This document shows positions 33,905 to 35,811 of a stretch of 64,000 nucleotides of DNA, in pieces. The stretch lies in assembly GCF_055900595.2 (NCBI RefSeq), contig NZ_CM148325.1. One strand, written 5' to 3'. The notes under the pieces were generated by a model. It had not been told where the DNA came from. It worked only from the letters and a program-made list of their open reading frames with translations, and made no database searches. Position 1 is the stretch's first letter, and each line of letters begins with the position of its first letter. The position numbers and the translations under genes were made by a program.

Positions 33905-34168
33905 TCAGGCGCGGATTTGTTGTGATGTGGTTGTGCTCTGGCAGATGGCAACGTGTGCGACGTCCACCAGTTTATTTAACTGACTAAACAGTAAGTCGAC
34001 CGACCGTGGGCTGGCAACGGTCAATTCGATATTTATATTTTGTGCATCGCTGGCGGCGGCCATATTCATTGAGCAGACGTGGAAACCACGATGACGCACC
34101 ACGCGTAAAACACGTTCTAAGGTTTCCGGATTGAAGCGAGCCGATACATTGACCTGATGTTGCATCAT
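33905..34168 (-). CDS. ilvM: acetolactate synthase II small (regulatory) subunit
   Basis: 87-aa [39 protein letters not shown]...; 4-nt overlap with ilvG. Confidence 0.95.
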
Positions 34169-35811
34169 GATAATTTCTCCAACATTTCTGAATTACTGGC
34201 GCCAGGCGGCACCAGCGGCCAGACGTTCTCAAGTTCGTCGATTGAGACATGAAGCAGGTATGGCCCATCACTGTTCAGCATGGTGTCGAGTGCCGCTTCA
34301 ACCTGGTCTTTACGGGTGATGTGTTGGCCAGGGATGCCGAAGGCGCTGGCTAACATGAGGAAATCGGGATTATCGGTAAGGGTGGTTTCGCTATATCGTT
34401 CCTGGAAAAACAGTTGCTGCCATTGTCGAACCATCCCTAACCGTTGGTTATCGAGTAAGACGATTTTCAACGGTAACTGCTTGCGTTTTACGGTGCCCAG
34501 CTCTTGCACATTCATCATGAAAGAGCCGTCACCGGAGATACAGACGACGGTATCGTTCGGTCGCGCAACTTGCGCACCAACCGCTGCCGGTAAACCAAAC
34601 CCCATGGTGCCTAATCCGCTTGAAGTGATGAAATTTTCCGGGCGAGTGTGGACGATGTGCTGCGCGGCCCACATCTGGTGCTGCCCTACATCTGTGGTTA
34701 CTACACAATCTTCAGGTTTACGATCCGACAGTTGTTTTAACAACAACGGCGCGTAGATAGCATCACCGGGATGGTTGTAACGCCATGCATGTTCATCACG
34801 CAGCTGCGCGCAGTGTTGCTGCCAGTCATTGATATTTAACGGCTGCTGTAACGCAGGCAACAGCGTGTTTAAATCACCCTGCAATGCCACATGCGCCTGA
34901 CGCAGCTTGTTCATTTCTGCCGGGTCGATATCCATATGGATAACACTGGCGTGTGGTGCGAAGGTGTTCAGTTTGCCAGTTACCCGGTCATCAAAACGTG
35001 CACCCACGGCGATCAACAAGTCGCATTCCTGCACCGCAAAGTTCGCCGCTTTGGTGCCGTGCATCCCCAGCATGCCCAGATAGTACGGATAATCCGCATC
35101 AACTGCGCCAAGTCCTTTCAGCGTGCAGGTGGCAGGCATTTTTGTGGCAGAGAGAAATTCACGCAAAGCCGAAACTGCCTGCGCCATGCCCACGCCACCG
35201 CCAACGTACAGCATCGGTTTTTGCGCTTTTGCCAGCATCTGACGCGCTTGCTCGACTTCGGCATGTGGGAAAGTCACTTCGTTTTCAACAGTGGTGAACC
35301 ACGGTTCCAGATCGCCGCTGGCTAACTGGATATCTTTTGGGATATCGACCAAAACCGGACCGGGACGACCTGAGCTGGCGACGTCAAACGCTTCGGCCAT
35401 GATACGCGGTAACTCTTCCAGTGATTGCACCAGGAAACTGTGCTTGGTGCAGGCTAACGACAACCCCAGAATATCCACCTCCTGAAATGCGTCAGTGCCG
35501 ATAAACGGTGCGGATACCTGACCGGTGATAGCAACAACGGGGATGGAATCTAACAGCGCGTCCGCAAGCCCGGTTATCAGGTTGGTTGCACCAGGACCAG
35601 ACGTGGCGATGCAAACGCCAGTTTTGCCGGTAGCACGGGCATAACCGATAGCCGCCATTGCTGCACCTTGCTCGTGTCGGCACAGCAAGTGTTCCACGCC
35701 ACCGTCATACAATGCATCGTAAACCGGCATAATTGCGCCACCCGGATAACCGAAAACGGTGTTCACACCCTGTGCCCGCAACGCATGTACCACCCACTGT
35801 GCGCCATTCAT
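34165..35811 (-). CDS. ilvG: acetolactate synthase II large subunit, full length (not frameshifted)
   Basis: Uninterrupted 548-aa [37 protein letters not shown]... with TPP-binding regions; K-12 carries a frameshift in this gene. Confidence 0.95.

Follow-up and report, generated by a model that had tools for sequence, protein, structure and literature searches.

An intact and probably functional ilvG gene in a stretch of Escherichia coli DNA that is not of K-12 origin

The window, the whole 64-kb stretch of DNA that was analysed, carries an uninterrupted ilvG gene for the catalytic subunit of acetohydroxy acid synthase II (AHAS II). There is little room to doubt that this is the wild-type gene of a natural, non-laboratory lineage of E. 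coli and that, judged from its sequence, it would be functional. The identity of the gene, its intactness and its operon context can be read directly from the window. Intact ilvG is already known and ordinary, and the finding is an expected one rather than a discovery. The following features form the 5' part of the ilv operon in the window.

35951..36049, minus strand: ilvL leader peptide, 32 aa, rich in Ile, Val and Leu, MTALLRVISLVVISVVVIIIPPCGAALGRGKA (open reading frame; WP_001311244.1, the same accession in K-12)
35895..35930, minus strand: hairpin of the attenuator terminator, followed by U8 (folding, -21.6 kcal/mol, z = -3.96)
35814..35864, minus strand: ilvX, an open reading frame for a 16-aa peptide directly upstream of ilvG (annotated as IlvX WP_001387183.1 in Z0117EC0005 and K-12)
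34165..35811, minus strand: ilvG, AHAS II (acetohydroxy-acid/acetolactate synthase II) catalytic subunit, 548 aa, intact (open reading frame, equivalog model, domains)
33905..34168, minus strand: ilvM, AHAS II small (regulatory) subunit, 87 aa (NCBIfam NF008362, Pfam ACT_5)
32956..33885, minus strand: ilvE, branched-chain amino-acid transaminase, the next operon gene, whose open reading frame contains MTTKKADYIWFNGEM (WP_000208520.1 in Z0117EC0005)

The reading frame of ilvG starts with an ATG at 35811..35809, ends with a TGA at 34167..34165 and runs for 548 codons without interruption. A preliminary description of this DNA had placed a 548-codon frame beginning with MNGAQWVV at 34165..35811, and the list of open reading frames gives exactly these coordinates; the strand, which the description did not name, is minus. 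The description also had the frame running into ilvM, and the TGA of ilvG and the ATG of ilvM (34168..34166) do share an ATGA overlap.

Scored with NF006524, the NCBIfam equivalog model of the acetolactate synthase 2 catalytic subunit, the protein reaches 1073.6 bits, well over the cutoff of 738, and its residues 1-547 align to positions 1-547 of the 548 in the profile. It fails the cutoffs of the other listed AHAS equivalog models and passes only this model and the generic TIGR00118. Three Pfam domains are each matched over the full profile: TPP_enzyme_N (PF02776) at residues 1-116, TPP_enzyme_M (PF00205) at 186-321 and TPP_enzyme_C (PF02775) at 374-522. The three-domain architecture of ThDP enzymes, with an N-terminal Pyr domain, a central domain and a C-terminal PP domain, is complete, and the equivalog and domain matches agree with the preliminary naming of the gene as a full-length AHAS II large subunit. 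RefSeq annotates ilvG with the same boundaries in E. coli Z0117EC0005 (NZ_CP098223.1; protein WP_032304139.1), and that gene and the window gene are identical at every nucleotide.

By sequence, the nearest solved relative is IlvB, the large subunit of E. coli AHAS I (PDB 6lpi; E = 1e-162 over residues 2-544). IlvB belongs to the same fold family of ThDP-dependent AHAS enzymes as the window IlvG but is a paralogous isozyme: AHAS I and III are sensitive to inhibition by valine, whereas AHAS II is not (PMC8605374). Much closer are the IlvG proteins of E. coli strains other than K-12, represented by CFT073 (WP_001012593.1) and 2017-02-2CC (WP_039020271.1). These resemble the window protein in their length of 548 aa, operon position, ATGA overlap and catalytic residues, and are 98.4-99.5% identical to it in amino acids. 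Compared with these genes, the window allele is a nucleotide mosaic and carries a rare patch at nt 945-960.

In K-12, the orthologous locus holds a pseudogene. When the window ilvG is aligned with that of K-12 (a DH1 derivative, where RefSeq flags the gene as "frameshifted"), there is a single indel in the gene, one AT of an (AT)2 repeat.

34834..34835, minus strand: AT dinucleotide absent from K-12, gene nt ~977-978, the second unit of ATAT in TTAAATATCAATG (alignment)

At this site K-12 reads TTAAATCAATG and the window reads TTAAATATCAATG. The K-12 frame ends in …PLNQ*, with a premature UGA at codon 328; the computed position of the stop agrees with the published premature UGA (PMC8605374). 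The window gene keeps ATAT, reads through to codon 548 and is no pseudogene of the K-12 type. Besides the AT lost at nt 977-978 and the stop at codon 328, K-12 ilvG has 95 further substitutions (94.1% identity). The surroundings are alike: the ilvL, ilvX, ilvM and ilvE proteins of K-12 are identical to those of the window, and the attenuator is nearly so. The preliminary claim that the K-12 frameshift is absent is thus borne out by the alignment that it called for, in which the AT is present at 34835-34834.

The same description had named, as the case that would speak against it, a compensating indel that restores the frame across a scrambled segment. The alignments exclude this. ilvG is 1647 nt long with one terminal stop in the window, CFT073, R32_14_1F, 2017-02-2CC, E. 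albertii and three other enterobacteria, including Citrobacter; since the length is equal and the comparison with K-12 has a single indel, there is neither a compensating indel nor a scrambled segment.

The operon context is that of AHAS II. In Z0117EC0005 the gene order is ilvL-ilvX-ilvG-ilvM-ilvE-ilvD-ilvA-(ilvY)-ilvC, and both the order and the protein accessions match. The window coordinates of ilvE were mapped from coordinates 27224-28153 of the Z0117EC0005 record. IlvM scores 133.9 bits against the NF008362 equivalog (cutoff 68), and its annotation in Z0117EC0005, WP_000983255.1, is an accession shared with K-12. A full-length match to the leader family Rfam RF02744 (158.8 bits) spans 35831..36120, with ilvL inside it. 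A consensus terminator scan of the minus strand missed the attenuator hairpin, probably on account of an unpaired C/C in the stem, and direct folding recovered it. Only 4 of 299 nt in the ilv leader differ from K-12, none of them within ilvL or the hairpin. IlvG is therefore found paired with an ACT-domain IlvM within ilvLXGMEDA, behind a leader attenuator and with ilvE, ilvD and ilvA downstream.

Residues E47 (catalytic), F109, Q110, M250, R276, V375 and W464 are all present at the expected positions of the window IlvG. These positions have been studied by mutagenesis in E. coli AHAS II (Chipman-lab literature), and substrate-specificity residues are among them. The ThDP/Mg2+ cofactor motif GDG-x24-DN lies intact at residues 427-455, and the conserved TPP-binding residues, whose loss would have counted against the preliminary description, are kept. 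None of the amino-acid differences from a repaired K-12 sequence falls at a known catalytic position. In comparison with four other E. coli alleles, the protein is 97.6-99.5% identical and dN/dS is 0.03-0.05 against every comparator; the gene is therefore under strong purifying selection.

One stretch of the gene stands apart from the comparators.

34852..34867, minus strand: micro-patch AACACGCTGTTGCCTGCG, gene nt 945-960, 6 substitutions in 16 bp (variable-site table)

The codons of the patch are AAC ACG CTG TTG CCT GCG, as against AAT GCT CTG TTA CCR GCA, which amounts to five synonymous changes and one replacement, A316T. The patch is absent from all four E. coli comparators and precedes the K-12 frameshift site by about 17 nt. 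Of 5,426 complete E. coli genomes, only 10 match a 76-nt query over the patch at 98.7% or more; the next best match is 90.8%, with no intermediates. No match was returned by an exact codon-degenerate pattern scan for a donor among 100,044 species-representative genomes. In a protein-based scan for a donor, E. albertii is the only Escherichia among the matches listed, and it does not have the patch. Superficieibacter has 4 of the 6 derived states in common with the patch, too few to name it as the donor. The 76-nt query matches a median of one place per genome, and the 18-nt tract is too short for BLAST to reveal a source in the paralogues ilvB or ilvI.

The patch bears on the better of two alternative explanations, namely that the frame is open and yet the enzyme is inactive or altered, as a mosaic allele with a disabling substitution might be, A316T and its patch included. 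The protein does have 13 amino-acid differences from repaired K-12 and 3-9 from the other natural alleles, and A316T, private to the window allele among those compared, sits beside the K-12 lesion site. This explanation is nevertheless very improbable. The low dN/dS against all comparators points to strongly purifying selection, every residue with published mutagenesis data is conserved, and all but one of the six changes in the patch are silent. Residue 316 itself falls between the Pfam TPP_enzyme_M and TPP_enzyme_C matches and varies among A, S and V across enterobacteria. Finally, 8 complete genomes of isolates from humans and dogs carry the identical allele. A functional wild-type gene remains the preferred reading.

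The other alternative is that the frame is open through a secondary change in a gene derived from K-12, either a revertant or an ilvO-type suppressor. Such revertants are common in the laboratory, and in evolved MG1655 strains a single-base deletion of T or G at the premature UGA (nt 982/983) restores the frame (PMC8605374). For the window this is scarcely credible, and the alignments refute it: the gene has the ancestral ATAT at the full 1647 nt, as in CFT073, R32_14_1F, 2017-02-2CC and E. albertii, it differs from K-12 at 95 further sites, identity to K-12 over the whole 64 kb is only about 96-97%, and no K-12-like background sequence is seen.

The preliminary description had concluded from the intact gene that the host is not K-12. 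The conclusion stands, and the argument for it is right but trivial and carries almost no information, because an intact ilvG is the norm for the species. Of 5,426 complete E. coli genomes, only 340 match a 60-nt probe across the K-12 junction at 100%, and sampled genomes outside these 340 match it over 61-62 nt, consistent with an extra AT. In NCM3722 (NZ_CP011495.1), a K-12 strain whose record does not name it as one, the match to this probe extends over 62 nt rather than 60, with 96.8% identity, as an intact frame would give. If its frame is intact, there are K-12 strains without the ilvG frameshift. Given NCM3722 and MG1655 with a restored frame (PMC8605374), an intact gene by itself would not rule out descent from K-12.

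What excludes K-12 here is sequence divergence, not intactness. The window is collinear with the oriC–rrnC–ilv–rep–rho–wec–aslAB region of K-12, and its ilvG is 94.1% identical to that of K-12. In 500-bp tiles over the 64 kb, most identities to K-12 are 92-99%, with 92-95% in the ilv-rep block, which is not the near-identity of a K-12 lineage. In contrast, the window is 99.97% identical to the dog isolate Z0117EC0005 (99.966%, with 21 mismatches and 0 gaps over 61,108 bp). A host from a cryptic clade or from another Escherichia species was also considered and, for this stretch of DNA, rejected: yifB shows 97.9-99.3% identity to ordinary E. coli and 89.5% identity to E. albertii, and most ilvG segments closely match ordinary E. 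coli alleles.

Several other parts of the window differ from K-12 or from related strains. The most divergent long stretch relative to K-12 is the ilvGMEDA-ilvYC-ppiC-rep block at ~23500..35500, with 90-95% identity per 500-bp tile compared with 96-99% elsewhere. Between ppiC and rep, at 26010..26501 on the plus strand, an intact open reading frame encodes a toxin of the PemK/MazF family, with 163 aa if read from a GTG start; RefSeq annotates it as 150 aa (WP_000996698.1), and its K-12 counterpart is annotated as a frameshifted pseudogene. The adjoining 500-bp tile at 26501-27000 covers ppiC; its identity to K-12 is only 86.5%, and it contains indels. At the aslA/aslB end of the window, positions 1..3500 are 86-95% identical to K-12. 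The closest non-identical relative, 2017-02-2CC, has three hypothetical genes between ilvA and ilvY (9680..11158 of its locus) that are absent from both the window and Z0117EC0005. The mioC-mnmG intergenic region, which holds oriC in K-12, maps from the annotation to ~60362..60741 of the window. An rRNA operon of the rrnC type with tRNA-Glu, tRNA-Asp and tRNA-Trp, mapped in the same way, lies at roughly 39.3-44.6 kb.

Only 8 E. coli genomes carry an ilvG at least 99% identical to that of the window; in 1,587 the identity is 95-99% and in 3,830 it is 90-95%. Identities of 93-96% are normal between pairs of E. coli ilvG alleles, and low identity is not specific to the window allele. Pairwise values between intact alleles range from 93.1% (CFT073 and R32_14_1F, dS 0.32) to 98.6%. 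The idea that the window allele is an outlier at least 3.8% away from all E. coli but 8 was rejected, as 2017-02-2CC is 98.6% identical in both a best-ranked search and a direct alignment. The variable-site table resolves the window gene into parts: nt 1-~651 resemble CFT073, and nt 661-930 and 980-1647 resemble R32_14_1F and 2017-02-2CC. Two other strains attracted attention in these searches. The ilvM-ilvE segment of ECOR29 is only 91.5% identical to the window and represents another very divergent ilv haplotype. In NCCP12480 the match covers only 58% of ilvG, which is annotated as "thiamine pyrophosphate-binding protein" and may have been truncated independently of K-12.

The divergence of ilvG within E. 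coli can be set against the distance to E. albertii. The nucleotide identities below come from one E. albertii genome and from the window together with four E. coli comparators.

yifB: 97.7-99.3% among the five E. coli sequences; 89.3-89.9% between E. coli and E. albertii
ilvG: 93.1-98.6% among the five E. coli sequences; 93.6-95.1% between E. coli and E. albertii
ilvM: 99.2-100% among the five E. coli sequences; 98.1-98.5% between E. coli and E. albertii
ilvE: 95.7-99.6% among the five E. coli sequences; 94.4-97.0% between E. coli and E. albertii

Like ilvG, ilvM and ilvE are unusually close to E. albertii, whereas the adjacent yifB shows the normal gap between species. In ilvE, CFT073 is nearer to E. 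albertii than it is to the window. In ilvG, nt 1-450 of E. albertii group with those of K-12 and R32_14_1F (94.4-94.7%), apart from the type shared by CFT073 and the window (90.2-92.7%). By these comparisons ilvG appears throughout E. coli as a deep recombination mosaic, whose alleles differ from one another as much as they do from E. albertii, and its divergence is a property of the species and not of this window. A tentative further interpretation, for which the odds are rather against than for, is that the ilv operon blurs the boundary between E. coli and E. albertii, either by repeated recombination between the species or through long-lived (balanced) haplotypes; the window allele with its rare patch might then be one more product. 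A literature search of incomplete coverage found no prior reports on the diversity or recombination of ilvG. The mosaicism may be of interest to population geneticists who study recombination across species borders in Escherichia.

The consequences expected for the host are those of a working AHAS II. IlvG would serve as the catalytic subunit, dependent on ThDP, FAD and Mg, translated through to the ATGA overlap with ilvM, and together with IlvM it should form a valine-insensitive AHAS isozyme. The host should then grow on minimal medium with valine, as MG1655 with a restored ilvG frame does at 1 mg/ml valine (PMC8605374). In K-12 the ilvG frameshift is polar on the downstream genes (PMC8605374), and this K-12-specific polarity on ilvEDA, which comes from the premature stop, should be absent. 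In B strains ilvG is intact and expression of ilvGMEDA is higher (PMC3446290). AHAS II activity, valine resistance and freedom from polarity on ilvEDA are thus predictions for this strain, derived from published K-12 genetics.

E. coli has an intact ilvG by default, and what would follow from it is textbook K-12 genetics. The practical value of the finding lies in annotation hygiene, with the gene to be recorded on the minus strand and as functional-looking. This strain should not be judged by expectations about ilvGMEDA expression that come from K-12, such as valine sensitivity and growth-rate-dependent polarity.
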